A DNA stretch of 11,661 nucleotides from a virus. The stretch lies in the UHGV virus genome UHGV-0318018. One strand, written 5' to 3'. The position numbers were made by a program, and so were the translations under genes. Below, one piece after another: positions 24 through 11,661 of the stretch. The first letter of the stretch is position 1. Each line of letters opens with the position of its first letter. The notes below the pieces were generated by a model, which had not been told where the DNA came from, did not search any database, and saw only the letters and a program-made list of their open reading frames with translations.

Positions 24-692
24 ATGGACTTCATTGCCGCAAATCAATGCCGGAGTCAGCCGGATGACGCAAAGCGGATAGAGTGTTATGACAAAGCTGT
101 AACTCCAACACGCACCAAAACATTAGAAAAGTTTGAAAGCAGGGATCAATGCAGGGATGAGGCGTGGGAGAAAAAAAGGCTGTCTTGCTATGATCGTTTT
201 TTTTCTCCAACATTTACTAATGCCAAGGTTGACAATGTACATAAAGACAGTAGGGATGTTGGGGACTGGAAAGTTGATATAAAAACATCTCCAATCGATG
301 ACTCTAAAAATGTTGTTATCTTTGTGAATGGTAATGATTCTTTTAGGTCCCCGTTTGGAGACAACATAACTCCAACTCTTTATATTGCGTGTAGGGAAAA
401 TAAAACAGAGCTGTTTATAGATTGGGATGTATACTTGGGGCTGAGTGAAACTACGATGATTCATCGAATAGATAAACAAAAAGCCATAAACAGAAAGTGG
501 TCTATTTCAACAAATACAAAGGCCGTCTTTTATGATGGTAATGTGATTGATTTTATAAGAAAGTTACAAAGTGGTAATCAGTTATTTGCTCAGATAACCC
601 CATATAGTGAAAGTCCGGTGAGCACAACCTTTAATCTCAAAGGTCTTTCTGAAGTTATTAAACCATTACAAGAATCATGTAACTGGAAATAG
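24..692 (+). CDS. Hypothetical protein in an AT-rich accessory gene; possibly 5'-truncated by the window edge
   Basis: 222-codon ORF, stop TAG at 690-692. The frame is open from position 3, so the true start may lie upstream. Composition is visibly more AT-rich than the phage tail genes. Contains a duplicated motif C-x9-R-[IL]-x-C-Y-D (CRSQPDDAKRIECYD and CRDEAWEKKRLSCYD). No family recognised by eye. Confidence 0.5.
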   Translation: MDFIAANQCRSQPDDAKRIECYDKAVTPTRTKTLEKFESRDQCRDEAWEKKRLSCYDRFFSPTFTNAKVDNVHKDSRDVGDWKVDIKTSPIDDSKNVVIFVNGNDSFRSPFGDNITPTLYIACRENKTELFIDWDVYLGLSETTMIHRIDKQKAINRKWSISTNTKAVFYDGNVIDFIRKLQSGNQLFAQITPYSESPVSTTFNLKGLSEVIKPLQESCNWK

Positions 693-769: not shown

Positions 770-1066
770 TCAGCCATATTTGCGGGCGAAATCTTCATCT
801 GAGGTGCATAGATAGATAAAAAATTCAATAAAAGCCACGATTGCCGGGATAAATGTCCAGCAAAAAATAAGGTAAAGAAATCCCTGCCCCACTTTACCTA
901 AATAAAATTTGTGTGCACCAAGACCACCTAAAAAGAAAGCCAGTAGTGCGGCTGTCATTCTGCTTTTTGAACTTGCTGTTCTTTGAGGTGCTCCACAATT
1001 GGGGCAGGATGTGGCATCTTTATGTATTTCCTTGCCGCATCCGCGGCAAAATACCATTTCACTCAT
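770..1066 (-). CDS. Small membrane protein with N-terminal zinc-ribbon (CxxC...CxxC) and TM2-like hydrophobic C-terminal domain
   Basis: 98-codon ORF. N-terminus CRGCG...CPNCG is a C4 zinc ribbon, followed by two hydrophobic segments (LLAFFLGGLGAHKFYLG and LYLIFCWTFIPAIVAFIEFFIYL). SD-like AAGGA sits 7 nt upstream of the ATG at 1066. Confidence 0.6.
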   Translation of the reverse strand: MSEMVFCRGCGKEIHKDATSCPNCGAPQRTASSKSRMTAALLAFFLGGLGAHKFYLGKVGQGFLYLIFCWTFIPAIVAFIEFFIYLCTSDEDFARKYG

Positions 1067-1170
1067 AAAGAGTTCCTTTCAAATTTAAACAAGCGTTAAG
1101 CCCACCACTCTTACTGGCGGGCCTCAATTTAAATTTGGGTGCCACTTCGACCTTACCCTGGCAACCGATT

Positions 1171-1192
1171 GACGGGGGATTGCTCCCCCGTC
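1171..1192. other. Perfect 9-bp stem hairpin (GACGGGGGA-TTGC-TCCCCCGTC) in the hok 3' flank
   Basis: Read directly from the sequence. Followed on + by GCGGTTTCC. Could be a transcript 3' structure of the hok mRNA or a terminator; function not established. Confidence 0.3.
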
Positions 1193-1201
1193 GCGGTTTC
1201 C

Positions 1202-1342
1202 TTACTGCTTACACTGTAAGAACGCCGCAAACTCCGCTCCCCAGAAGCTCATCCGTATTTCGCACAGCGAACCGTGCAGCATCCAGATGATGAGGATTGC
1301 CGTCACGCAGAACGTGATGGCCGTAAGCGATTTTTGCGACAT
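1202..1342 (-). CDS. hok: Hok/Gef-family type I toxin (small membrane-depolarising peptide)
   Basis: Hand translation of the - strand gives ATG(1342-1340) MSQKSLTAITFCVTAILIIWMLHGSLCEIRMSFWGAEFAAFLQCKQ stop TAA(1204-1202), 46 aa. It has an N-terminal TM helix followed by the SLCEIR motif and an E-x-AAF C-terminal region typical of Hok/HokA-E peptides. AAGGAG SD lies 8 nt upstream. It is absent from the ORF track because it is under 60 aa. Confidence 0.6.
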   Translation of the reverse strand: MSQKSLTAITFCVTAILIIWMLHGSLCEIRMSFWGAEFAAFLQCKQ

Positions 1343-1472
1343 AGCACTTGCTCCTTTTCCGGAGAGGCGCTAACCTTTCACTTGTCAAGGTAATGCGGTT
1401 AGGGCCTCGGTTAAACAGAAATGTTTTCCGGGGCCTTTCCACATCTGGCCTTCGGGTATTCCCTCCGACCAT
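1209..1472 (-). CDS. mok-like overlapping reading frame (modulation of killing) covering the hok gene in another frame
   Basis: 87-codon ORF that starts 130 nt upstream of the hok ATG and ends 7 nt before the hok stop, in a different frame. This geometry matches the mok/hok arrangement of plasmid R1. The sequence itself is not conserved enough to confirm. Confidence 0.3.
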   Translation of the reverse strand: MVGGNTRRPDVERPRKTFLFNRGPNRITLTSERLAPLRKRSKCYVAKIAYGHHVLRDGNPHHLDAARFAVRNTDELLGSGVCGVLTV

Positions 1473-1532
1473 CAGCCGAAAGGCACCCGCGCGTAATCTA
1501 TCGCTTTTTTGTTACTCCGGCAATTCTGTTAG

Positions 1533-1793
1533 TTAATTCTGAGATAAAGGCAAACTCATCTGATTGTTTCCCCTGTGTGAAGCTGGCAGCTCATGCCACG
1601 GGATACCTTCTGAAGAGTGAACGCCGGAGGCGTGTTTTGATGTGAATTTATGGAAAGCTTCCAGTGTTGAGAAGCATACGCCGCATTCCAGGTTGTTACA
1701 CTGGTAATACTTTTGCCGCACGGTGTTTGAATCATTTTCCGGACGACTGGTGCGGATACGGGCAGATGCGCCACAAAGCGGACAACGGAACAT
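1533..1793 (-). CDS. ogr: Ogr/Delta-family zinc-finger late transcription activator
   Basis: 86 aa beginning MFRCPLCG...YYQCNNLECGVCF, with the four Cys of the Ogr zinc finger at positions 4, 7, 32 and 37. Strong SD AAGGGAGG sits 5 nt upstream of the ATG at 1793. Lies immediately downstream of gpD as in P2. Confidence 0.85.
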   Translation of the reverse strand: MFRCPLCGASARIRTSRPENDSNTVRQKYYQCNNLECGVCFSTLEAFHKFTSKHASGVHSSEGIPWHELPASHRGNNQMSLPLSQN

Positions 1794-1835
1794 AGCGACC
1801 TCCCTTAACGTGGTGCTGCTGCTATTCTAAGTTGC

Positions 1836-2945
1836 TCACTCTGTTTCTGCTATCCATTCCGGGATTTTTGCCTCAAGCTCAAGCTGCGTGGTAAAGCCGC
1901 TGTTATCGATGGTGTGCTCGGCTTTTGCAATAATCCAGTCCTGATTATCAATCTCGCTTTTAAATCCTGTTACCGTGCCATGCATTTCGGGGTAGAGTTC
2001 TGCACGACCACGTGCCAGCGTGATGGAGAATGATGCGGCTCCGCGTTGTAGCTGCTGCCACTTTGCCGCCGCTGCGCGTCTTGCTGCCTGCTCGTTCTGA
2101 TAAGTCTTGCGTAACACAAACACATTGCCTTCCGCGCCTTCCATATAATCACCTTCACGGCTGCTGCTTTTCTCCTTTTTGGGTTTTGGCGGTTTGCGGC
2201 GTTTCACGCTGACTTTTTTCTTTTTCCCGTAATTAAGATCAAGCCAGTAAGCGCGTACCCCCGTATACGCCTCGCGGTCAGCAATGCGGAACTGATGGCG
2301 ATCGCCGCTACTGCGTGTGATGGCGAACGATGGCAACGGCTGGCCCTGTGCGTTCACGCCACCGCCGGGCATGATGAATAACAGATTACCGCTTTTTACC
2401 GTGGTGATTGCGCCCAGCATTTCCGCCATGCGCGTAAGGAAGGACATGTCACTTTCTTCGGTCTGGTCGGCGTGGTCGATTTCGATATCCATCAGCATTT
2501 CGCTGATTTGCGGTTTCAGACCGTACCGATGAGCGATGGCGGATACCACACGCTCAACGGTCACATCATGCCAGGACACCTCACGTTTAACGTTAAATTC
2601 ATCCCGAAAATCTGCGCTTCTGGCTGAAACAGTCAGCCTGTCCGGCGGTCCTTCGTGAGCGATTTCATCAACAATGTAAGTGCCTTTTTCTGTCAGCGGT
2701 TCTCCTTTCCAGCCAATGAGAACCGTCAGGCGCGCGCCCCGTGGCGGTAGCTGCAACTGACCATCTGCATCATCCAGCGTGATGGTGAGCTGGTCTGCTT
2801 CAAATCCCCGGTTGTCGGTCAGTGACAGGCTCATCAGGCGCTCTGCCACGCCTGACAGCGTTTTACCCTCCGCGAGAATATCAAAATCCGGCATTTTCAC
2901 GGGGTCTGTGCTCTGACTGAGCAATTGCATGGTGGTGTCGGTCAT
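1836..2945 (-). CDS. P2 gpD-like tail protein (late control gene D family)
   Basis: Long ORF 1836-2966. The preferred start is the ATG at 2945 (MTDTTMQLL...), preceded by GGGAGGG at 5-nt spacing. Size (about 369 aa) and position next to ogr match P2 gpD. Contains an unusual Lys/Arg-rich patch GKKKKVSVKRRKPPKPKKEK. Confidence 0.85.
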   Translation of the reverse strand: MTDTTMQLLSQSTDPVKMPDFDILAEGKTLSGVAERLMSLSLTDNRGFEADQLTITLDDADGQLQLPPRGARLTVLIGWKGEPLTEKGTYIVDEIAHEGPPDRLTVSARSADFRDEFNVKREVSWHDVTVERVVSAIAHRYGLKPQISEMLMDIEIDHADQTEESDMSFLTRMAEMLGAITTVKSGNLLFIMPGGGVNAQGQPLPSFAITRSSGDRHQFRIADREAYTGVRAYWLDLNYGKKKKVSVKRRKPPKPKKEKSSSREGDYMEGAEGNVFVLRKTYQNEQAARRAAAAKWQQLQRGAASFSITLARGRAELYPEMHGTVTGFKSEIDNQDWIIAKAEHTIDNSGFTTQLELEAKIPEWIAETE

Positions 2946-3101
2946 CTTTCCCTCCCTGTGCGGCATGGTCGCATGTGCGTGCGGAGGGGGTTACTGCTTT
3001 TTGTTGTCGCCGTGGCGGGAGAACGGCGCAGGGGTGAGATTACGCGCGTGGTGGGTGATGATTGTTGCCGAATCATTTAACGGATACAAGGGGCTGAAGC
3101 T
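2946..3101. promoter_or_regulatory. Divergent intergenic region expected to carry promoters for D-ogr (leftward) and the FI-U operon (rightward)
   Basis: 156-bp gap between divergent start codons, each with a good SD. No exact Ogr box (TGT-N12-ACA) was found by eye, so promoter positions are not assigned. Confidence 0.35.
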
Positions 3102-4286
3102 ATGAGTGAAACTCGTTTTCATGGTGCCCGTGTCACGGAAAGTACCGACCTGGTAACAGCGGTTAATGATGTTGATTCCAGCGTTATCGGTATCGTGGCA
3201 ACGGCGGATGATGCGGATGCGGAGCTGTTCCCGCTGAACAAGCCCACACTGCTGACCCGCGTCAATGACGTGCTGGGAAAATGCGGTACTACGGGGACGC
3301 TTTATCGTGCGCTTAAGGCTATCGCAGACCAGGTGAGCACAAAGGTGATCGTCGTTCGCGTGGCTGAACACAAAAAAGAAGGCGGTAAGACGCAGGATCA
3401 ACTGGTTATCGGTGGTTCTGAGGATGACGGCAGCTATACGGGGATGTATGCGCTGCTTGTTGCAGAGCAGGATGAAAGCATCGGATACCGTCCGCGCATT
3501 CTGGCTGCGCCGGAGCTGGACACGGAGGCGGTGACAAAATCTCTGTGCGTGATTGCAGGTAAACTGCGCGCGTTTGTGTATGCCTCATGTCATGGCTGTG
3601 ACACGATGGCCGAGGCAATTACCTACCGCCAGAAATTCAACGAACGTGAGGTGATGCTCTTATGGCCGGACTTTATCGCCTACAACCCGAAAAGTGGCAA
3701 AAACGAAACGTTCCCCGCGCCTGCCTATGCGTGCGGCCTTCGTGCGTACATTGACCATGAGCAGGGCTGGCACAAATCGCTGTCCAACGTTCCGGTTAAA
3801 AATGTGCTGGGGATGTCCAGGCATGTGTTCTGGTCGTTGCAGGCCGAAGACAGTGATGCCAACAGCCTCAACAACAAAGAAATCACGACCATTATTCGTC
3901 GCAACGGGTTCCGCTTCTGGGGCAACCGCACACCGGAAACGAACGCCTACATCTTTGAGGTGTATACCCGAACCGCACAGGTGCTGGCTGATTCAATTGC
4001 GGAAGCGCAGTTTGAAACCATCGACAGTCCACTGACGCCTGCGAATGTGAAGGATGTTATCAGTGCCATCAGGGCAAAACTGGATTCACTGGTTACTGCC
4101 GGGAAACTGATTGGGGCGTCGTGCTGGTATGACGTGGTGGATAACGGCACCACGAATTTACGTCAGGGGCGCGTGCGTATTCGCTACAAATATACGCCTG
4201 TTCCCCCGCTGGAAGACATGGAGCTTTACCAGTCGTTTACTGATGAATTCTTTGGTCCCGCATTTGCGGTGCTGGGAGGTGCCTGA
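3102..4286 (+). CDS. Contractile tail sheath protein (P2 gpFI family)
   Basis: 394 aa. Conserved sheath blocks visible, e.g. DADAE.FPLNKP, KLRAF.Y, WPDF.A, EQGWHK.LSNV, IRR.GFRFWGNRT, NYTRTAQV, YTPVPPLE. AAGGGG SD upstream of the ATG. Confidence 0.9.
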   Translation: MSETRFHGARVTESTDLVTAVNDVDSSVIGIVATADDADAELFPLNKPTLLTRVNDVLGKCGTTGTLYRALKAIADQVSTKVIVVRVAEHKKEGGKTQDQLVIGGSEDDGSYTGMYALLVAEQDESIGYRPRILAAPELDTEAVTKSLCVIAGKLRAFVYASCHGCDTMAEAITYRQKFNEREVMLLWPDFIAYNPKSGKNETFPAPAYACGLRAYIDHEQGWHKSLSNVPVKNVLGMSRHVFWSLQAEDSDANSLNNKEITTIIRRNGFRFWGNRTPETNAYIFEVYTRTAQVLADSIAEAQFETIDSPLTPANVKDVISAIRAKLDSLVTAGKLIGASCWYDVVDNGTTNLRQGRVRIRYKYTPVPPLEDMELYQSFTDEFFGPAFAVLGGA

Positions 4287-4798
4287 TGGCTGTACCAAAA
4301 CATCTTCGCTTTTTTACGCTGTTTGTGGATGGTGAAAACGAAGTGGGTAAGGTGACGTCCGTCACTCTACCTAAGCTGACGCGCAAAACCGACAGCTACC
4401 GGGGTGGTGGCATGATGGGTGCGGTAAGTATTGATCTCGGTCTGGACGACTCCGCGCTTGATGCGAGCTTTGTCATGGGGGGCGCAGTTCGTGAGCTGTT
4501 CCTTAAGTATGGCGGCACGATTGACGGCACGCTGCTGCGTTTTGCGGGTGAATACTACACCGATGCAGAAAGCGACCTGTATGAAGTCGAAATGCGCGGA
4601 CGTGTGACGGAAATTGATATGGGGGAAGCCAAACAGGGCGAAGCCACATCACACAATTACGCCATTAAAAACACCTACTACAAGCTGAGTGTTAACGATC
4701 GCCCGTTGTGGGAGATTGACCTGCTGAACTTCATTTACCGGAAGGACGGCAAGGACATTGTGCCCGATCGCATCCGTTCCGCGCTCGGGCTTGGCTGA
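4286..4798 (+). CDS. Tail tube protein (P2 gpFII family)
   Basis: 170 aa. The start overlaps the FI stop by 1 nt (TGATG), with GGGAGG SD. Motifs VTLPKLTRK..YRG.GM and LRFAG.Y are typical of FII tube proteins. Confidence 0.9.
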   Translation: MAVPKHLRFFTLFVDGENEVGKVTSVTLPKLTRKTDSYRGGGMMGAVSIDLGLDDSALDASFVMGGAVRELFLKYGGTIDGTLLRFAGEYYTDAESDLYEVEMRGRVTEIDMGEAKQGEATSHNYAIKNTYYKLSVNDRPLWEIDLLNFIYRKDGKDIVPDRIRSALGLG

Positions 4799-4852
4799 TA
4801 AGTAATATGCAGGCGGCGCAGTGCGTCGCCTCTGACTGAAAGGAGTTTCCTG

Positions 4853-5218
4853 ATGAAAGAGACGAAAAACATCGATACCGAAAACACGGTAGTTACTGAC
4901 ACTGTGAAAGAAACCAGTGAGCGTGGCGTAAAACTTACCCAACCAATTGAGCGAGGCGGCGAAAAAATCACGTATGTGGAGATCACCGGGGCTATTGAGC
5001 AGGCTGGATCTCTGCGAGATTTGTCGCTGTCTGATGTGCTGAATCTGAAAGCGGAATCCATGTTTACGCTGCTGTCACGCGTGACATCACCGCGACTGGA
5101 TGAAGTGACGATCAAAAAAATGGCATCCCGTGACTTTATTCAGTTATGTGTGGTTGCCGTAAATTTTTTGAGCGGTGCGGACTCTGGCGGGAAGAACGAA
5201 CAGGCGACGGAAGCCTGA
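4853..5218 (+). CDS. Tail assembly chaperone gpE (zero-frame product)
   Basis: 121-codon ORF with AAAGGAG SD 7 nt upstream. It sits between the tube and tape measure genes and carries a slippery TTTTTTG near its 3' end, as in P2 E. Confidence 0.7.
   Translation: MKETKNIDTENTVVTDTVKETSERGVKLTQPIERGGEKITYVEITGAIEQAGSLRDLSLSDVLNLKAESMFTLLSRVTSPRLDEVTIKKMASRDFIQLCVVAVNFLSGADSGGKNEQATEA
5164..5170 (+). other. Programmed -1 ribosomal frameshift slippery heptamer TTTTTTG (E to E')
   Basis: T TTT TTG in the E frame (codons NFL). The -1 frame continues open to the TGA at 5380-5382. The same heptamer mediates the E/E' frameshift in P2. Confidence 0.6.
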
Positions 5219-5382
5219 TCACGGTTGTGTGCTTTGAGCACATAGAAGACTTTGTGGCGGATATTGCCGCCATTTTTAACTGGTCGCCCGCCGAAATCTT
5301 CATGATGACGCCCGGCGAAGTGGTTAGCTGGCGTGAGCGGGCGGCACTTCGCAGCGGGAATGCAGACAATGAAGACTCTTGA
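5170..5382 (+). CDS. E' extension; the fusion product E+E' is made by a -1 frameshift at 5164-5170
   Basis: The -1 frame is open from the slippery site to 5382 (ERCGLWREE...FVADIAAIFNWSPAEIF...LRSGNADNEDS). This is the G/GT-like chaperone arrangement upstream of the tape measure gene. Confidence 0.6.
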   Translation, partial: ERCGLWREERTGDGSLITVVCFEHIEDFVADIAAIFNWSPAEIFMMTPGEVVSWRERAALRSGNADNEDS

Positions 5383-8176
5383 TATCCGGGTCGCTTTCAG
5401 CGCCGTTGACAGGCTGACCCGGCCTGCCGAAAACGCCCGCCGCCTGATGGGGCAGTTTGGTGACTCCATCCAGCGAACGCAGGGGGCGATCAAAAATCTC
5501 GAGCGTCAGGCGCGATCATTTGAGCGCGCCCGCGACGCTGTCAGTAAAGCGGATGCGGGTATCGTGAAAGCACGACGCCAGCTTAACGCCCTTAATCAGT
5601 TACAACGCACGGGTACAGTGCTCAGCGAAAAACAACAAAAGCTGATGCAGCAGTTAAGCACCCGGCTTGAACGCCTGAATGAATCGCGCACACGGGAAAT
5701 TCAAAAAATGCGGGAGCTTGGCGGAGAGCTGAAACGCCACGGCATTTCCCTGACAGGCAGCGATAACACCATCCAGCAGGCCATCAGACGCACCGAACAG
5801 TACAACAACCAGCTTGAACGCGAACGGCAGGCGCTTGCACGTGTAACGCGGGCGCGTGAGCGGTATTCGCGCGCGCAGGAAACAGCGGGAAAACTGAAAA
5901 CAGGTGGTGCGCTGGCAACTGGTGCGGCAGCGGCGGGCGGCTATGCTGCCGGGCGTTTTTTGCAGCCTGCGATCGGGTTCGGCAAAGAGATGTCCCGCGT
6001 TCAGGCACTGACGCGAATCGACAAAAACAGCCCGCAGTTTAAGGCGCTGCGTGAGCAGGCGTTAAAACTTGGCTCTGAAACACAGTTTACTGCGAGTGAT
6101 GCCGCCAGTGGACAGAGCTTTCTGGCAATGGCTGGTTTTACTCCGCAGGCCATTCAGGCTGCACTTCCCGGCGTGCTGAGCATGGCAACGGCTGGCGGTA
6201 TGGATCTCGGCGAGACGGCGGATATTGGCTCAAATATCCTGACGCAGTTCGGCCTTTCTGCTGACCAGATGGACCGGGTCGGTGACACGCTCACCGCAGC
6301 GTTTACCCGTACCAACACTGACCTTCGCGCACTTGGCGAAACCATGAAATATGCAGGTCCGGTGGCGGGCAAGCTGGGAATATCGCTGGAGCAGGCCGCA
6401 GCGATGGCGGGCGTACTGGCGAATATGGGTATCAGGGGAAGTGATGCCGGGACGGCAATGCGTGCCAGCCTGGCTCGTCTGGCATCACCGCCAAAGGCGG
6501 CGGCAGAAGCTCTGAAAGAGCTGGGCGTGTCCGTCTCTGATGCGAATGGCAAAATGCGCCCGATGGAAGATCTGCTGGCTGACCTTTATAAAGCCACCCG
6601 CAAATACGGGGAAGTTGACCGGGTATCGTTCTTTAAGGACATTGCCGGGGGAGAGGCTTTCACATCGTTTATGGCACTCGTTGATGCGGCGGGTGACGGT
6701 TCCTTACCCAAACTGAGAAAAGAACTTGAGGGCGCACGCGGTGAGGCTGAACGCACGGCAAAGGTGATGGCCGACAACCTTGATGGCGACCTGAAAAATC
6801 TGGACAGCGCATGGGAAGGTCTGCGTATTCGCATTGCAGATCTGATTGACGGTCCGCTGCGTTCTGTCACGCAGTGGCTCACGCGGGTGGTCTCAAAGGT
6901 GACGGCGCTGGCGCAGGCCCATCCGGCACTGACGCGCCAGCTACTGATAGCAGGCGGTGCGCTGCTGGCAATGACTGCAACGGTCGGCTCGTTGTCGCTG
7001 GTTATTGGGGTGCTTTACGGGAAGCTGGCCACCCTGCGTCTTGGTTTCGACATTCTTACCCGGTCAATGAATGTCGTCAGGGTGTTGCCTGCGCTGTGGG
7101 GAATGGTGACGGGTTCCGTTTCTTTACTGGGAGGCGCCATCGGGGCGTTGTTCAGTCCGGTTGGTCTTATCGTGGCTGCGCTTGCCGGAGCTGCCGTTCT
7201 TATCTGGAAATACTGGGATCCCATCAGGGCATTTTTTGCCGGGGTGTTCAGCGGGATTATGGAAAGGCTGACCCCGTTGCGCGAAACCTTTGAACGGTTT
7301 GGTCCTGTTTTTGACGCAATCGGAAGCGGGATCAGCCAGGTGTTTAACTGGTTTAAATCGCTGCTGTCACCGATGGAATCCAGCAAGGAAACGCTGGATA
7401 AATGTACCAGTGCTGGCGAGATATTCGGTAACGTTCTTGGTGGCGCGTTACAACTTGTTCTGACGCCTGCAAAAATGCTGCTGGATACGCTGGCGTGGAT
7501 ACTTGAAAAACTTGGCGTCCTTCCGGATGAAGCGGAAAGGGCGCGCAAGAAAATCGAAGACGCACAGCGTGCGGCCATTCTTCAGGACAAGGTTGCCTTG
7601 CTTCAGGGGGACCTGGCGAAAATCAATCCGCCGAAGCCTGTGGAAAATGGCAATGGCACCGGAGGTGATAAACCCAAAGACAACAAACCGCTCACAGACA
7701 GCAATACCGGGACGCTACGCAGACTCAGCAAAATTGCTGATAACACAGGTAAGCTGGTTGATGAGACGAAAAAACGCATTGGCCCCGGCGATATTGTCTT
7801 TAAGAACCTGCCCCGCGCACTTGCTGTTCGTGGGGAGTGGCAGGAGCGGAAGATTGCGCAGGTCAGTAAGTCTGCCCCCGCAATGAATATCACACCCGTG
7901 GTTCCGGCTCCGCTGCCTCCGGCGCTGGTCCCTGTTGTTGCGACCAGCTCCCGCCCGGTGGCAGAGGCCATACGATCGCCAGTGGCATCAGTTCCTGCAA
8001 CTTCCCGTAACCGGGAACCTGTTGCCTCCGGATTTGGCGGTGAAATTCATGTTCATCTGCATAACGTTGTTACGCAGAATCCCCGCGAACTGGCGAAACT
8101 GGTCGGTGAAATGGTCAGGGCAGAAATGGAACGGCGCGCCCGTGCCGGGCGTGGCAGTTTTTACGATAAAGATTGA
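5369..8176 (+). CDS. Tail tape measure protein (P2 gpT family)
   Basis: Long ORF open from the GTG at 5333; in-frame ATGs at 5360 and 5369. 5369 is preferred because GGGAA lies 8 nt upstream. Shows a coiled-coil-rich N-terminus, a TMP core (DLRALGETMKYAGPVAGKLGISLEQAAAMAGVLANMGIRGSDAGTAMRASLARL) and Gly/Ala-rich hydrophobic segments. Confidence 0.85.
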   Translation: MKTLDIRVAFSAVDRLTRPAENARRLMGQFGDSIQRTQGAIKNLERQARSFERARDAVSKADAGIVKARRQLNALNQLQRTGTVLSEKQQKLMQQLSTRLERLNESRTREIQKMRELGGELKRHGISLTGSDNTIQQAIRRTEQYNNQLERERQALARVTRARERYSRAQETAGKLKTGGALATGAAAAGGYAAGRFLQPAIGFGKEMSRVQALTRIDKNSPQFKALREQALKLGSETQFTASDAASGQSFLAMAGFTPQAIQAALPGVLSMATAGGMDLGETADIGSNILTQFGLSADQMDRVGDTLTAAFTRTNTDLRALGETMKYAGPVAGKLGISLEQAAAMAGVLANMGIRGSDAGTAMRASLARLASPPKAAAEALKELGVSVSDANGKMRPMEDLLADLYKATRKYGEVDRVSFFKDIAGGEAFTSFMALVDAAGDGSLPKLRKELEGARGEAERTAKVMADNLDGDLKNLDSAWEGLRIRIADLIDGPLRSVTQWLTRVVSKVTALAQAHPALTRQLLIAGGALLAMTATVGSLSLVIGVLYGKLATLRLGFDILTRSMNVVRVLPALWGMVTGSVSLLGGAIGALFSPVGLIVAALAGAAVLIWKYWDPIRAFFAGVFSGIMERLTPLRETFERFGPVFDAIGSGISQVFNWFKSLLSPMESSKETLDKCTSAGEIFGNVLGGALQLVLTPAKMLLDTLAWILEKLGVLPDEAERARKKIEDAQRAAILQDKVALLQGDLAKINPPKPVENGNGTGGDKPKDNKPLTDSNTGTLRRLSKIADNTGKLVDETKKRIGPGDIVFKNLPRALAVRGEWQERKIAQVSKSAPAMNITPVVPAPLPPALVPVVATSSRPVAEAIRSPVASVPATSRNREPVASGFGGEIHVHLHNVVTQNPRELAKLVGEMVRAEMERRARAGRGSFYDKD

Positions 8177-8188
8177 GGAGTCATGGCC

Positions 8189-8677
8189 ATGATGATGATC
8201 TACGGCATGTTTGTTTTTGAGCTGCGCACGCTGCCGCATCAGCAGTTACAGCAAAACAAAAGCTGGCGGCATGTGAAAAATGAACGCGTTAACCGTTCAG
8301 CAAGCTGGCAGTATATCGGTGCAGGTGATGATCGCATCGTGCTTTCTGGTGTGCTTTATCCTGAAATTACAGGTGGCGAAGTGTCGCTGTCGCTGCTGAC
8401 CACGCAGGCGTATACAGGACACCCCTGGCCTCTGATTGATGGCGTCGGGCAGATTTACGGCATGTATGTCCTGACCGACACGAATACGACCCGTTCCGAG
8501 TTTGATTGCTACGGCAAGGCGAAAAAGATAGAGTTTTCACTGACACTTGAACGCTGTGATGAAGATTTGCGGGAGCGACTACAATCCTCATCGTTCAGCG
8601 ATATGCTGTCCGGCCTCAAAGATAAGGTGACGTCATCCCTTAACAGCGCGGCCAGCTCCGTTAAAGGGCTGTTTTGA
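8189..8677 (+). CDS. Tail protein gpU (P2 U family)
   Basis: ORF from 8183 (MAMMMIYGMFVFELRTLPHQQLQQNKSWRH...). The ATG at 8189 is favoured because GAGGAG at 8175-8180 then has 8-nt spacing. Motifs LQQ..SWRH and LSG.LYPE.TGG are shared with P2 gpU. Confidence 0.85.
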   Translation: MMMIYGMFVFELRTLPHQQLQQNKSWRHVKNERVNRSASWQYIGAGDDRIVLSGVLYPEITGGEVSLSLLTTQAYTGHPWPLIDGVGQIYGMYVLTDTNTTRSEFDCYGKAKKIEFSLTLERCDEDLRERLQSSSFSDMLSGLKDKVTSSLNSAASSVKGLF

Positions 8678-8684
8678 TTAACGC

Positions 8685-8714
8685 AAAACCGCTAATGGTC
8701 AGATTAGCGGTTTT
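8685..8714. terminator. Bidirectional terminator hairpin between U and the invertase gene
   Basis: AAAACCGCTAAT (8685-8696) pairs with ATTAGCGGTTTT (8703-8714) around a 6-nt loop, with T-runs on both strands. The invertase stop codon lies within the right arm. Confidence 0.5.
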
Positions 8715-9303
8715 CATTTTCCTGAGTCTGCCTGGTTGTTTCTTCAGCCTGTATATCGCCTACAGGGTGATAACGATAAATCGTCGATATGCCGATGTCG
8801 TAAATGATCGCCAGTTGTTTCCTGTCATGACCGTTTTTAATCAGCCTCGCTATTTGCTCGTGTTGTTCTTTTGTCAACTTCGGGCGACGTCCGCCAATGC
8901 GTCCTTGTGCGCGTGCTGCTGCCAGCCCGGCCAGTGTACGCTCTACAATTAATTCACGTTCCATTTCGGCTAAAGCCCCCATGACGTGAAAAAAGAAACG
9001 CCCCATGGGTGTTGATGTGTCAATGCTGTCCGTCAGACTACGGAAATTAACACCTTTTTCCCGCAATTCCTCAATAAGCGTGATCAGGTGTTTCATACTT
9101 CTGCCCAGTCTGTCCAGCTTCCAGACAACCAGCGTATCTCCTTCTGATAGCGTTCTGAGCAGTTTTTTCAATCCCGGTCTGGCTGATTTCGTTCCGCTGA
9201 TTTTATCTTCAAAAATCAGTTCACATCCTGCGCAGTTCAGTGCATTGCGTTGTAAATCCGTGTTTTGGTCATTTGTTGACACACGAATATAGCCAATTTG
9301 CAT
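8704..9303 (-). CDS. Serine DNA invertase, Pin/Gin/Cin/Hin family
   Basis: The true start is the ATG at 9303 (MQIGYIRVSTNDQNTDLQRNAL...), with AAAGAGGA SD. Resolvase catalytic N-terminus with active-site Ser in GYIRVSTNDQ, plus the motifs LVVWKLDRLGRS, GRFFFHVMGALAEMERELIVERTLAGLAAARAQGRIGGRRP and a C-terminal HTH. The longer ORF-track start at 9432 is an upstream artefact. Confidence 0.9.
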   Translation of the reverse strand: MQIGYIRVSTNDQNTDLQRNALNCAGCELIFEDKISGTKSARPGLKKLLRTLSEGDTLVVWKLDRLGRSMKHLITLIEELREKGVNFRSLTDSIDTSTPMGRFFFHVMGALAEMERELIVERTLAGLAAARAQGRIGGRRPKLTKEQHEQIARLIKNGHDRKQLAIIYDIGISTIYRYHPVGDIQAEETTRQTQENENR

Positions 9304-9357
9304 AAAAAACATCCTCTTTGTTTCGTGAAAAATACATAGTTGGTATAGGTAGGGATA

Positions 9358-9383
9358 AAGACGAAAACGTTGGTTTAGGAGAA
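9358..9383. promoter_or_regulatory. Candidate 26-bp invertase crossover site (cix/gix-like), overlapping the invertase promoter region
   Basis: AAGACGAAAACG-TT-GGTTTAGGAGAA. The right half, read on the other strand, is TTCTCCTAAACC, resembling Hin-family half-sites (TT.TC..AAACC). The left half is degenerate. It lies 55-80 bp upstream of the invertase ATG, where gixR/cixL-type sites sit. Not verified. Confidence 0.25.
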
Positions 9384-9521
9384 GGCTCGGCGCTACCCGT
9401 TGGTGTGCCTGTTCCGTGGCCCACCGCCACACCGCCAGCAGGCTGGTTAAAGTGCGACGGGCGCGCCTTTACAAAAGAACAATATCCTGTTCTGGCCAGA
9501 GTCTACCCGACCCTCCGTCTT
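9366..9521 (+). pseudogene. Tail-fibre collar fragment (NVGLGEGSALPVGVPVPWPTATPPAGWLKCDGRAFTKEQYPVLARVYPTLRL), truncated at a recombination junction
   Basis: Conserved tail-fibre collar motif G.P.PWP..PAGWL.C.G..F....YP.LA..YP. Homology ends abruptly at 9521/9522, where inverted repeat IR-A begins. There is no start codon and no N-terminal shaft. Confidence 0.45.
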
Positions 9522-9631
9522 ATATCAGCACGGCACCTGAAATCAGCTGGCCGGAAGCGCCACTGGCACTTGCCAGCTGAACGGTATCACGCCGCCCTCA
9601 CGATATAGTTAAACGCGATATTGCGGGGGCG
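9522..9631. repeat. IR-A left arm (110 bp), inverted copy of 10103-10212
   Basis: Reverse complement of 10103-10212 with 4 mismatches by hand alignment. Contains the fibre 3' end (RPRNIAFNYIVRAA stop) on the - strand and a Tfa 3' end on the + strand. Confidence 0.85.
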
Positions 9632-10148
9632 GGTTATGTTAAAGAATGCTCCGTTTAATTCGGCTTTTGCGCGACTGTTTGTTCCACCCAGAATTGCGTA
9701 CCACTTGCCTGTTGGTGTGCCTGTTCCGTGGCCCACCGCCACACCGCCAGCAGGCTGGTTACAGTGCAACGGAGCTACGTTCACCAAAGGACAATATCCT
9801 GTTCTGGCCAGAGTCTACCCGACCCTCCGTCTTCCCGATTTGCGCGGTGAGTTTATCCGTGGATGGGACGGTGGTCGCAAGGTTGATACCGGGCGTGCGC
9901 TACTTTCATTTCAGGAAGGGACTATCGTATCCGGTTTTGATGATAATGATACCGGAGATATCAGTTCGCTCGGCTCTACACAATATGGATTTGGTGACGC
10001 TTTAACCTCTAATCAACTGGGGGTCATAAATGACAAAAAGTGGATATTTGATGCATCCTCTAAAGGTGCACAAAGATATGACTGGTGGGCTTATGTATCA
10101 GCTCGCCCCCGCAATATCGCATTTAACTATATCGTGAGGGCGGCGTGA
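9621..10148 (+). CDS. Tail-fibre C-terminal cassette 1 (collar plus receptor-binding tip), lacking the N-terminal shaft
   Basis: Open frame containing LPVGVPVPWPTATPPAGWLQCNGATFTKGQYPVLARVYPTLRLPDLRGEFIRGWDGGRKVDTGRA..., ending RPRNIAFNYIVRAA. Collar motifs match Mu S / P1 S / P2 H-type fibres. Only a TTG or an internal ATG (9636) is available as a start, so it is probably silent unless fused to a constant region. Confidence 0.55.
   Translation: MRGRVMLKNAPFNSAFARLFVPPRIAYHLPVGVPVPWPTATPPAGWLQCNGATFTKGQYPVLARVYPTLRLPDLRGEFIRGWDGGRKVDTGRALLSFQEGTIVSGFDDNDTGDISSLGSTQYGFGDALTSNQLGVINDKKWIFDASSKGAQRYDWWAYVSARPRNIAFNYIVRAA
9756..9870. repeat. IR-B left arm (115 bp, collar-coding), inverted copy of 11098-11212
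   Basis: Reverse complement of 11098-11212 with 2 mismatches. Encodes WLQCNGATFTK.QYPVLARVYPTLRLPDLRGEFIRGWD in both cassettes. Confidence 0.85.
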
Positions 10149-10212
10149 TACCGTTCAGCCGGCAAGCGCCAGTGGCGCTTCCGGCCAGCTGATTTCAGGT
10201 GCCTTGCTGATA
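10103..10212. repeat. IR-A right arm (110 bp)
   Basis: See IR-A left arm. Spans the convergent 3' ends of cassette 1 (+) and the tail-fibre assembly gene (-). Confidence 0.85.
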
Positions 10213-10769
10213 TTCAGTGCGTTCAGCTCGTCGATATAATCCAGCACGGCGTTCAGTTTTGCCGTTTCTTCTGGTGTCAGACTGCGACCAGCACGCAGTT
10301 TGAGGTTGATAAGATCGACGGACGCCATCGCCTGTTTCACCCGTTGCTGGCGTTGCTGTCTGGCAACCTCCAGTTCTGCGGCTCGCTGCCGTTCAGTATC
10401 GGTTACCCACGCCTCACCGTTCCAGGTATCCCATGGCGTGGCTGGCTGTTTTGTGGTGGTGTCCGCCGGGTAATCACCCGGTTGGGTAATCAGAACGGGG
10501 TTACCGTTCTCCGTGCTGTATACCGTCTCGCCGCGGTGATCAGGCACATGCTCCCACCCGTTCAGCGTGGCAGTCCGGCAAACCACGTAACCCGAAATTG
10601 CCTCCGGCGGTGCATCGGCGCACGAATGTGCCGGAGTACCCACCCCAAGGGCGAGATACTCCACAGAGGATGAGGTGTATTCCCGGGTTTCCTCGTCATA
10701 GTGATATACAGTGATATCGCCCGCTACAGTGGCGATACCGTTTTCATCCAGAACTGCAGTGTTACTCAT
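10155..10769 (-). CDS. Tail fibre assembly protein (Tfa / P2 gpG / Mu U-like chaperone)
   Basis: 204 aa. The ATG at 10769-10767 overlaps the stop of cassette 2 (TAATG), with GAGGG SD. The C-terminal half (TDTERQRAAELEVARQQRQ...PEISWPEAP) has the acidic/coiled-coil and WPE features typical of Tfa chaperones. Confidence 0.8.
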   Translation of the reverse strand: MSNTAVLDENGIATVAGDITVYHYDEETREYTSSSVEYLALGVGTPAHSCADAPPEAISGYVVCRTATLNGWEHVPDHRGETVYSTENGNPVLITQPGDYPADTTTKQPATPWDTWNGEAWVTDTERQRAAELEVARQQRQQRVKQAMASVDLINLKLRAGRSLTPEETAKLNAVLDYIDELNALNISKAPEISWPEAPLALAG

Positions 10770-11220
10770 TAAACTGCCCTCACAATGTAATTAAGTGCAA
10801 TGCTACGGGGTCTGACAGTGATACCCTTCGCATACCCGCTTCTGATAGAGGTCAGAATAGTAGCCTGCATACCATTGTCTGACATTGCCATGACAGGATC
10901 GCTGAATGTTGTCCCGTCCGGCATTTTAAAGCTGCCCTCACGAAGGTCTGTAATGGAATCTTCATTGTTGAATCCCATGCCGACTATCCCCGAGGTTCCC
11001 GTAGTGTCCTGGTTATAATAATCCAGCATTGCTGTTCTTAACAGCGTTGCCCCTTGTGCGGACAGCAACTTACGTCCTGTATCAACTTTGCGCCCGTCGT
11101 CCCATCCACGGATAAACTCACCGCGTAAATCGGGAAGACGGAGGGTCGGGTAGACTCTGGCCAGAACAGGATATTGTTCTTTGGTGAACGTAGCTCCGTT
11201 GCACTGTAACCATGCAACAT
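10769..11220 (-). CDS. Tail-fibre C-terminal cassette 2 (collar plus distinct tip), start-less, translationally coupled to the downstream Tfa
   Basis: Hand translation of the - strand gives one continuous frame: WLQCNGATFTKEQYPVLARVYPTLRLPDLRGEFIRGWDDGRKVDTGRKLLSAQGATLLRTAMLDYYNQD...ITVRPRSIALNYIVRAV stop. It is open back to an in-frame stop at 11245-11243. The ORF-track TTG start at 11068 is internal, and there is no ATG. Confidence 0.55.
11098..11212. repeat. IR-B right arm (115 bp)
   Basis: See IR-B left arm. Confidence 0.85.
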
Positions 11221-11486
11221 TTATTCGTACAGCTTTGCAGGATTATTACGGTTACGATCTGAATACTAATGTCAAAGTAGGTATCGCTTTTGCTACTGCT
11301 GATTCTGTTATAACCGTTGGAAACCCAGCTAATCCTAAAGCAGGAAATAATAGCGATTATGTTCCTGCATCAGCAGATAACTCTATAACGGGTATTCAAA
11401 GGACAGCGGAGGATAATTTTACCGGGGCATGGATATCAATGCGCCCCCGCAATGTTGCGTTTAATTACATCGTAAGGGCCGCATAA
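11211..11486 (+). CDS. Tail-fibre tip cassette 3 (collar-less), start-less
   Basis: Frame reads HATFIRTALQDYYGYDLNTNVKVGIAFATADSVITVGNPANPKAGNNSDYVPASADNSITGIQRTAEDNFTGAWISMRPRNVAFNYIVRAA stop. It aligns with the post-collar part of cassette 2 (ATLLRTAMLDYYNQD...) and shares the C-terminal RPRN.AFNYIVRAA end. There is no in-frame ATG; the ORF-track N-terminus MVNVAPLHCN is the antisense of the collar. Confidence 0.45.
   Translation, partial: HATFIRTALQDYYGYDLNTNVKVGIAFATADSVITVGNPANPKAGNNSDYVPASADNSITGIQRTAEDNFTGAWISMRPRNVAFNYIVRAA
11251..11368. repeat. IR-C left arm (118 bp, perfect), inverted copy of 11544-11661
   Basis: Exact reverse-complement identity over 118 bp, verified base by base. 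The inner end carries a 29-bp near-palindrome GCAGGAAATAATAGCGATTATGTTCCTGC (11340-11368). Confidence 0.9.
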
Positions 11487-11573
11487 AAACGTTGGTTTGG
11501 GGGAAGGCTCTGCATTGCCTGTTGGTGTGCCTGTTCCGTGGCCGCAGGAACATAATCGCTATTATTTCCTGCT
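11476..11573 (+). pseudogene. Truncated collar-start fragment (GPHKNVGLGEGSALPVGVPVPWP) fused at 11543/11544 to inverted cassette sequence
   Basis: Third direct copy of the CTGTTGGTGTGCCTGTTCCGTGGCC collar start. Homology to the other copies ends at 11543, and the frame then runs through the antisense of cassette 3 to a TAG. Confidence 0.4.
11480..11505. promoter_or_regulatory. Second candidate cix/gix-like site, directly after the cassette 3 stop codon
   Basis: CGCATAAAAACG-TT-GGTTTGGGGGAA. The half-site read on the other strand is TTCCCCCAAACC. Same orientation as the 9358-9383 candidate, and followed by the same collar-start sequence. Confidence 0.2.
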
Positions 11574-11661
11574 TTAGGATTAGCTGGGTTTCCAACGGTT
11601 ATAACAGAATCAGCAGTAGCAAAAGCGATACCTACTTTGACATTAGTATTCAGATCGTAAC
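11544..11661. repeat. IR-C right arm (at least 118 bp; truncated by the window end)
   Basis: Exact reverse complement of 11251-11368. On the - strand it encodes the same tip segment (...DLNTNVKVGIAFATADSVITVGNPANPKAGNNSDYVPA), entering from beyond the window. Confidence 0.9.

Follow-up and report, generated by a model that had tools for sequence, protein, structure and literature searches.

In phage P2 the genes D and ogr follow the tail genes FI, FII, E, E', T and U on the same strand, and V W J I H G, which precede them in the P2 record, have the same direction too. The end of U is overlapped by D, and the F operon has its start site upstream of FI. The DNA analyzed here, the window, is a stretch of 11,661 nucleotides of the virus genome UHGV-0318018. 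It carries the same genes with D and ogr on the strand opposite to FI–U. Since the P2 record is co-directional throughout, as the initial annotation had said, the order in the window does differ from that of P2. The locus thus raises the question whether this gene order reflects an event in this particular genome, a distinct lineage or an error of assembly, and also from where D could be transcribed.

Genes and signals in the window

The open reading frame listing and the Pfam scans place the sheath-to-U block with FI, FII, E/E', T and U on the plus strand (3102–8677) and ogr and D on the minus strand, so that the gene calls and coordinates of the initial annotation proved right. All tail-module proteins except E exceeded the curated Pfam cut-offs. 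The features are as follows.

24–692, plus strand: VasI-like ORF (ORF listing and Pfam)
770–1066, minus strand: TM2/zinc-ribbon ORF (ORF listing and Pfam)
1202–1342, minus strand: hok-like ORF, 46 aa
1533–1793, minus strand: ogr, Ogr/Delta zinc-finger late-gene activator, 86 aa (Pfam PF04606, E = 5e-14; 42% identity to P2 Ogr)
1836–2945, minus strand: gene D, tail/baseplate hub, 369 aa (Pfam PF05954, Phage_GPD; 49% identity to P2 gpD)
2946–3101, no strand: D/FI divergent control region, predicted, 156 bp (44 distinct homologous spacers aligned)
3102–4286, plus strand: FI, tail sheath (Pfam PF04984, PF22671, PF17482; 45% identity to P2 FI)
4286–4798, plus strand: FII, tail tube (Pfam PF04985, E = 1e-46; 42% identity to P2 FII)
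4853–5218, plus strand: E (32% identity to P2 E; without Pfam match)
4853–5382, plus strand: E+E' by −1 frameshift (slippery T TTT TTG at 5164–5170; −1 frame ORF 5146–5382)
5333–8176, plus strand: T, tape measure (Pfam PF10145, E = 3e-59; 33% identity to P2 T)
8183–8677, plus strand: U, tail protein GpU (Pfam PF06995, E = 5e-38; 46% identity to P2 U)
8685–8714, no strand: hairpin, putative terminator, 12-bp stem with T-run (−15.6 kcal/mol, z = −3.4)
8704–9303, minus strand: serine DNA invertase of the Hin/Gin/Cin/Pin type, 199 aa (Pfam Resolvase, E = 3e-51, and HTH_7)
9363–9383, minus strand: invertase crossover site TTCTCCTAAACCAACGTTTTC, where the invertible fibre cassettes begin (no match expected by chance)
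9363 onward, no strand: alternative tail-fibre C-terminal cassettes and tail-fibre assembly gene

Three of the open reading frames extend beyond the probable gene starts. That of D reaches an upstream ATG at 2966; the start conserved in 44 relatives is ATG 2945, which is preceded by GGGAGG, and with this start the spacer is 2946–3101, as had been given before. The T frame begins with GTG 5333, the likely start being ATG 5360 or 5369, and the frame of the invertase extends to 9432 with its start at 9303, in agreement with the P88 annotation.

The window holds a complete P2-like contractile tail module (FI, FII, E/E' with the −1 frameshift, T, U and D). As the slippery heptamer of E/E' is in place and the −1 frame is open up to 5382, the FI–U block is, judged from its sequence, an intact P2-type tail module. 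With the F operon of P2 and 186 the window shares the genes, their internal order, the E/E' frameshift heptamer and the Ogr-type activator, with proteins that are 32–49% identical. The canonical arrangement, a single F operon in which FI FII E T U D ogr all run in the same direction, is however not found, and its absence is what defines the clade described below. Relative to P2 and 186 the FI–U block is flipped, as the initial annotation had proposed. The F operon no longer ends with D, and translational coupling between U and D is absent; D instead makes up a separate leftward unit with ogr, and U is followed by a terminator and an invertase gene. ogr follows D immediately and in the same direction, as it always does in the relatives, and the 42-bp gap between them is free of a hairpin. 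The reported succession of U, terminator and invertase holds as well. The hairpin at 8685–8714, located between the convergent U and invertase genes, has an A-run before and a T-run after it, and the terminator may therefore act in both directions. Neither the Rfam search at gathering thresholds nor the tRNA scan gave a match in the window; thus the hok-like locus is without a curated RNA match, and the tRNA scan revealed no attachment site marked by a tRNA.

The invertase possesses both the N-terminal resolvase catalytic domain and the C-terminal HTH_7 domain. A Resolvase and HTH_7 invertase beside alternative fibre C-terminal cassettes, together with 21-bp crossover sites of the AAACC..GGTTT type, resembles the tail-fibre or flagellin switches of the Hin/Gin/Cin/Pin family. 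A second copy of the crossover site is present at 11485–11505 in the same orientation as the copy at 9363–9383. These two are the only crossover sites in the window, both of them in the fibre cassettes, and the expected partner would be located in the H gene beyond the end of the window. The window itself ends in a foldback: within the invertible fibre region a perfect 118-nt inverted repeat (11251–11368 and 11544–11661) runs to the last base.

Relation to phage P88 and occurrence of the gene order

Positions 1137–9297 of the window match Escherichia phage P88 in a single collinear alignment with 95.5% nucleotide identity, a value that covers the shared 8.2 kb only, the window being about a quarter of a phage genome. 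The genus level of the ICTV corresponds to about 70% or more nucleotide identity over the genome. Collinear matches of 94–97% were also obtained with Citrobacter phage PhiSM, P884B11, 500465-2, 520873, PhiR44_2 and Chuche. P88 is the type phage of Xuanwuvirus, an ICTV genus of the Peduoviridae, and its RefSeq record (NC_026014) lists the invertase, followed on the other strand by U T E' E FII FI, and after these D. P88, PhiSM, P884B11, 500465-2, 520873 and PhiR44_2 have the same order as the window, namely invertase, U, T, E, FII, FI, divergent D and ogr, and hok, and the window thus displays the gene order of Xuanwuvirus. It differs from P88 at its two ends: left of 1137 there are the TM2/zinc-ribbon and VasI-like ORFs where P88 has gp53 and the int side, and the fibre cassettes right of 9303 are different. 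Positions 1–761 have no counterpart in any of the complete E. coli genomes. Both P88 and PhiSM are plaque-forming phages which are inducible or spontaneously released (PMC5285337, PMC6456863), so that the flipped gene order is functional.

The arrangement is not confined to these phages. Searching 5426 complete E. coli genomes with an 801-bp probe for the D/FI junction we find it at full length in 1355 genomes with 95–99% identity; the junction between U and the invertase is present at full length in 620 of the same genomes. Reading related loci by tblastn with the proteins of the window and of P2 gave U, T, E, FII and FI in one direction and D and ogr in the other for 123 out of 123 informative loci, in which D is at least 61% identical and among which the best 80 IMG/VR matches listed are included (80 of these 80 inverted). 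A scan with one genome per species yielded 47 loci, distributed over more than 20 genera; every informative locus was inverted. The genera include Salmonella, Citrobacter, Klebsiella, Raoultella, Enterobacter, Kosakonia, Kluyvera, Yokenella, Trabulsiella, Serratia, Rouxiella, Pantoea, Mixta, Erwinia, Izhakiella, Brenneria, Pectobacterium, Symbiopectobacterium and Edwardsiella; the hosts of the loci are Enterobacterales. Two ICTV genera have the flipped order, Xuanwuvirus and Reginaelenavirus. The Klebsiella phages of the latter (3LV2017 / Kp4871-3, with Kp4871-3 being inverted too) and prophages of Serratia, Pantoea, Erwinia, Brenneria, Kosakonia, Symbiopectobacterium, Edwardsiella and others share the flipped FI–U block and the spacer architecture with the window, their D being 61–80% identical. 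They differ in that mostly no invertase is detected beside U and in the lengths of the leaders; where the invertase is not detected, H, and G where it is detected, are convergent with U.

In P88 and more than 120 relatives V W J I H G, D, ogr and int all have the P2 orientation and FI–U alone is reversed. It is therefore correct to say that FI–U is inverted, and not that D–ogr is inverted. For the window itself the orientation with respect to the fibre side rests on these relatives, as the constant portion of H, the fibre gene, lies outside of it. The gene order which had been called non-canonical is hence the usual one in a well-described P2-like subgroup, and with the flipped order being standard in the large catalogued P88 group the arrangement is ordinary. 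Of the two possibilities raised initially, a large inversion event or a distinct lineage, the order does mark a distinct lineage, but it does not point to an unusual event in this particular genome, given that 123 loci are alike.

Polarity and origin of the inversion

Phages with a more distant D (at most 54% identical) keep the P2 order. This applies to P2, Felsduovirus RE2010, Gegavirus ST15-OXA48phi14.1, Arsenicumvirus M16-3, Tigrvirus phiE202 and Baylorvirus 1152AP; KP12 is canonical too, its sequence covering the T-U-D-ogr part only. We therefore conclude that the flipped order is derived and marks one clade. Loci with D of 54–61% identity were not seen, which corresponds to a gap in the phage collection, and the best 80 IMG/VR matches were all inverted. 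As far as the sequence comparison reaches, the inversion is old, fixed and lineage-defining. From the invertase remnant that RE2010 retains between G and FI, the left breakpoint can be placed between the fibre/invertase region and the FI promoter; on the right side the break falls between U and D.

We assign a probability of about 85% to the reading that the window holds the right-hand end of a P2-like prophage of the P88 type (Xuanwuvirus), in which FI–U was inverted in place in the ancestor of the clade and has been fixed since. In the common ancestor of this large enterobacterial clade of the Peduoviridae, FI-FII-E/E'-T-U would have been turned around in place along with the late promoter that precedes FI, with the breakpoints between the fibre/invertase region and this promoter and between U and D. 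After its fixation the inversion would have become the normal gene order of the clade, and this is simply what is seen today.

The different origins that could be envisaged for the block all encounter difficulties. A mis-join at 2946–3101 and/or 8678–8703, as considered initially, could have flipped the block during assembly, and the foldback of 118 nt at the window end is an oddity of the assembly type elsewhere in the sequence. Yet both junctions are located within single collinear alignments to independently sequenced phages and are found intact in 1355 (D/FI) and 620 (U/invertase) complete E. coli genomes, and so we regard the chance of such an artefact as practically nil. The serine invertase gene abutting one of the boundaries suggests that FI–U was inverted recently in this strain alone, or that this very enzyme inverts it reversibly, since enzymes of this type invert the DNA between crossover sites. 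Against this, the other orientation occurs in none of the 123 related loci (the best 80 IMG/VR matches listed included), and in most members of the clade no invertase was detected beside U. Moreover, both crossover sites of the window belong to the fibre cassettes, and a crossover site is absent from both block boundaries, where the best matches have at least 10 mismatches out of 21 positions. The search for recombination scars at the boundaries, which had been suggested as a check, turned up none: the best inverted match between 2900–3150 and 8620–8780 is 9 nt long, a length equalled in 12% of shuffled sequences. Likewise a repeat search over the whole window found no inverted repeat pair bracketing FI–U, all long repeats being situated in the fibre cassette region. 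A private or reversible inversion is accordingly very improbable. FI–U lacks flanking crossover sites and the Hin/Gin/Cin/Pin-type switch is unrelated to its inversion; the adjacent invertase would switch the tail-fibre cassettes only.

It is also conceivable that FI–U was acquired from another contractile-tail phage and inserted in reverse. P2-like phages are mosaic, and the proteins H (76%) and G (95%) of P88 are far more similar to P2 than the rest with about 45%, which points to a recent exchange of fibre genes. H and G, however, are the only outliers among the P88 proteins. Across head, baseplate, FI–U and D the proteins of P88 and the window are 30–54% identical to P2, reaching 61% in the baseplate, and FI–U (30–46%) stays within the range of D (49–50%), head (37–47%) and baseplate (44–61%). 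In addition, the identities of FI and D drop together within the clade, and the block has exactly the gene content and internal order known from P2, the E/E' frameshift included. A replacement of the module thus appears unlikely, although less so than the two preceding explanations, and an inversion in place in the clade ancestor is the reading that we prefer.

A predicted bidirectional promoter between D and FI

With FI–U inverted in place, D would need a promoter of its own, and the initial annotation had placed it in 2946–3101. An alignment of 44 distinct D/FI spacers identified three elements that are conserved amid diverged sequence, a central dyad and two flanking −10-like hexamers, and the spacer therefore does hold conserved promoter-like elements for D. 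The predicted elements are as follows.

2965–2970, minus strand: predicted −10 of the D promoter, GACCAT (A2 and T6 conserved; predicted start near 2958)
3005–3022, centre 3013.5, no strand: predicted Ogr-type activator site TGT-N12-AGA within the motif TTTGTTGTC...AGAAC (TTTGTTGTC and the A.A.C columns at least 80% conserved)
3057–3062, plus strand: predicted −10 of the FI promoter, GATGAT (GA..AT conserved; predicted start near 3069)

Late promoters activated by Ogr/Delta proteins contain a partial dyad TGT-N12-ACA with its centre about 55 bp upstream of the start site, and in P2, 186, P4 and PSP3 transcription from them needs Ogr and the alpha subunit of RNA polymerase. An Ogr/Delta zinc-finger activator is encoded in the window (PF04606, E = 5e-14). 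The half-sites in the window are TGT at 3005–3007 and AGA at 3020–3022. The left half-site TGT is invariant in the clade, whereas the right half varies, some relatives having ACA and many others, like the window, AGA; several relatives have a perfect GTTGTC-N10-GACAAC in their D/FI spacers. A similar element, CTTTTGTTGT-N11-AGAAC, is located in the middle of the divergent spacer between the terminase and scaffold genes of P88. A third late-promoter motif was sought upstream of R/S/V in P88 (18979–19115), and no TGT-N12-A.A site was found there.

The spacing of the three elements is strikingly constant. The distance from the dyad centre to T6 of the −10 hexamer is 48.5 bp in 42 of the 44 sequences on the FI side and in 41 of the 44 on the D side, and the spacing from −10 to −10 is 97 bp without any indel in more than 40 diverged lineages. 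The distance from the dyad centre to the start codon of FI, on the other hand, varies from 78.5 to 88.5 bp, and the leader lengths vary; the predicted leader of D is short with about 13 nt. The same geometry is known from the annotated pP/pO pair of P2, where one activator site of the form TGT-N12-xxA (GTTGT...CCA, centre 3071.5) is situated midway between two divergent promoters whose starts at 3016 and 3127 are each 55.5 bp away. In the window a start placed 7 nt beyond the −10 adds 7 to the 48.5 bp and likewise gives 55.5 bp from the centre to each of the predicted starts. The two pairs differ in the genes they serve: that of P2 drives packaging and head genes, and that of the window, the activity of which is predicted, would drive D and FI.

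It seems probable to us, albeit with considerable reservation, that the 156-bp spacer is a second bidirectional late promoter of the pP/pO type, in which a single Ogr site would serve both FI–U and D–ogr, and that the inversion was tolerated since it carried a dyad-symmetric site to D. The −10 hexamers, the start sites, the binding of Ogr and the promoter activity are predictions. The inversion would have brought the dyad-symmetric Ogr site of the FI promoter beside D, and D would be expressed from a second, leftward promoter using the same central site, in parallel to pP/pO of P2. As the short gap between D and ogr is free of a hairpin, late read-through into ogr is plausible. Such read-through from D would maintain the late positive feedback on ogr, which in P2 comes from the F operon.

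Alternatively, the spacer might contain no late promoter for D, which would then be transcribed from elsewhere, for example constitutively or early, with the spacer elements serving FI only. A scan with the sigma-70 consensus gave no match in the D/FI spacer, the total number of matches being at chance level, and this could be taken in favour of a promoter elsewhere; for activator-dependent promoters, however, the lack of a sigma-70 match is expected. Furthermore, the xAxxxT of the D side has kept its exact distance to the dyad in 41 of 44 diverged sequences, this spacing mirrors both the FI side and the mapped pP/pO pair of P2, and upstream of D on its strand there is only FI in antisense. 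We therefore consider a promoter outside the spacer rather unlikely and favour the shared central site.

Significance of the flipped order

The flipped order as such is already known from deposited, annotated and classified genomes and from a published genome map, that is, from deposited sequences, their annotation, taxonomy and a comparative map and not from a written description. The P88 paper shows the genome map against P2, and the inversion is absent from its text. Our search of the searchable literature found no paper describing the inversion or the D/FI promoter pair. The shared-site bidirectional promoter would thus be the only, and modestly, new point.

P88-type phages count among the most common P2-like prophages in E. 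coli and related enterobacteria, and about a quarter of the finished E. coli genomes contain the flipped order. For annotation pipelines D–ogr being divergent from FI is consequently neither an anomaly nor a sign of mis-assembly. The flipped FI–U block is a clean synapomorphy which separates the Xuanwuvirus/Reginaelenavirus clade from the P2-, 186- and Fels-2-type phages. Finally, the conserved spacer offers a test case for how one dyad-symmetric site may serve two divergent promoters and for how the rearrangement of an operon may be absorbed without new regulators.

Structure of the invertible tail-fibre region

The right part of the window (9318-11661) is a multi-cassette invertible tail-fibre region. 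It has three fibre C-terminal cassettes, whose last residues are RPRN(I/V)AFNYIVRAA or the variant RPRSIALNYIVRAV.

Features of the tail-fibre region (window coordinates)
9621-10148, plus strand, fibre C-terminal cassette
10155-10769, minus strand, tail-fibre assembly gene
10769-11068, minus strand, fibre C-terminal cassette
11181-11486, plus strand, fibre C-terminal cassette

A search of the window for repeats revealed a 110-nt inverted repeat with 96% identity between 9522-9631 and 10104-10213, which turns the first cassette (9318-9608) into a scrambled fusion of the N-terminal part of a fibre gene with the antisense of the end of the assembly gene. The same search returned a second inverted repeat of 118 nt with fully identical arms (11251-11368 and 11544-11661), whose second arm ends at the last base of the window and whose 175-nt loop holds the invertase crossover site 11485-11505. 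This repeat looks like a contig-end foldback arising from the assembly of a population mixed for fibre-segment inversions.

Left flank and hok-like locus

Position 1137 is the exact limit of similarity to all P88-type phages.

Features at the left end (window coordinates)
24-692, VasI-like ORF (PF11319)
770-1066, TM2/zinc-ribbon ORF
1202-1342, minus strand, hok-like toxin ORF of 46 aa with an SLCEIR motif

The stretch 762-1140, which carries the TM2/zinc-ribbon ORF, is present in 94 of the 5426 complete E. coli genomes searched. The stretch 1-761 with the VasI-like ORF was matched by none of these 5426 genomes, and its GC content is about 39% as compared to about 54% in the phage. On the phage side of the limit, between this position and ogr, lies the hok-like ORF; the surrounding stretch 1137-1510 shares about 80% identity with the hok/mok region found in Stx-converting phages, and in an Rfam search no family reached its gathering score.

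The D gene and its predicted promoter region

Just upstream of the predicted -10 hexamer of the D promoter there is a CA.GCGCGCG.G run (2972-2983), and the aligned column is conserved in the 44 relatives. P88 has a similar run, CCGCGCGCG, at 14183-14191, which occupies the corresponding position in the other divergent spacer of this phage, on the terminase side. Two genome records bearing a Firmicutes label, those of Vagococcus sp. WN89Y and of the Planococcaceae MAG UBA3378, also contain a D gene of the P88 type, with 98-99% identity to that of the window, most likely reflecting enterobacterial contamination of both assemblies.

Comparison with the P88 record

The RefSeq record of P88 (NC_026014) lacks a CDS for ogr and annotates the tube gene as "head closure". 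By tblastn, P88 34476-34733 encodes a 98% identical Ogr.

Fibre genes of P88 (P88 coordinates)
22562-24856, H, 76% identical to P2 H
24860-25387, G, 95% identical to P2 G

Since the remaining virion module of P88 is only 30-61% identical to P2, these values indicate that fibre genes have recently been exchanged between otherwise distant Peduoviridae.
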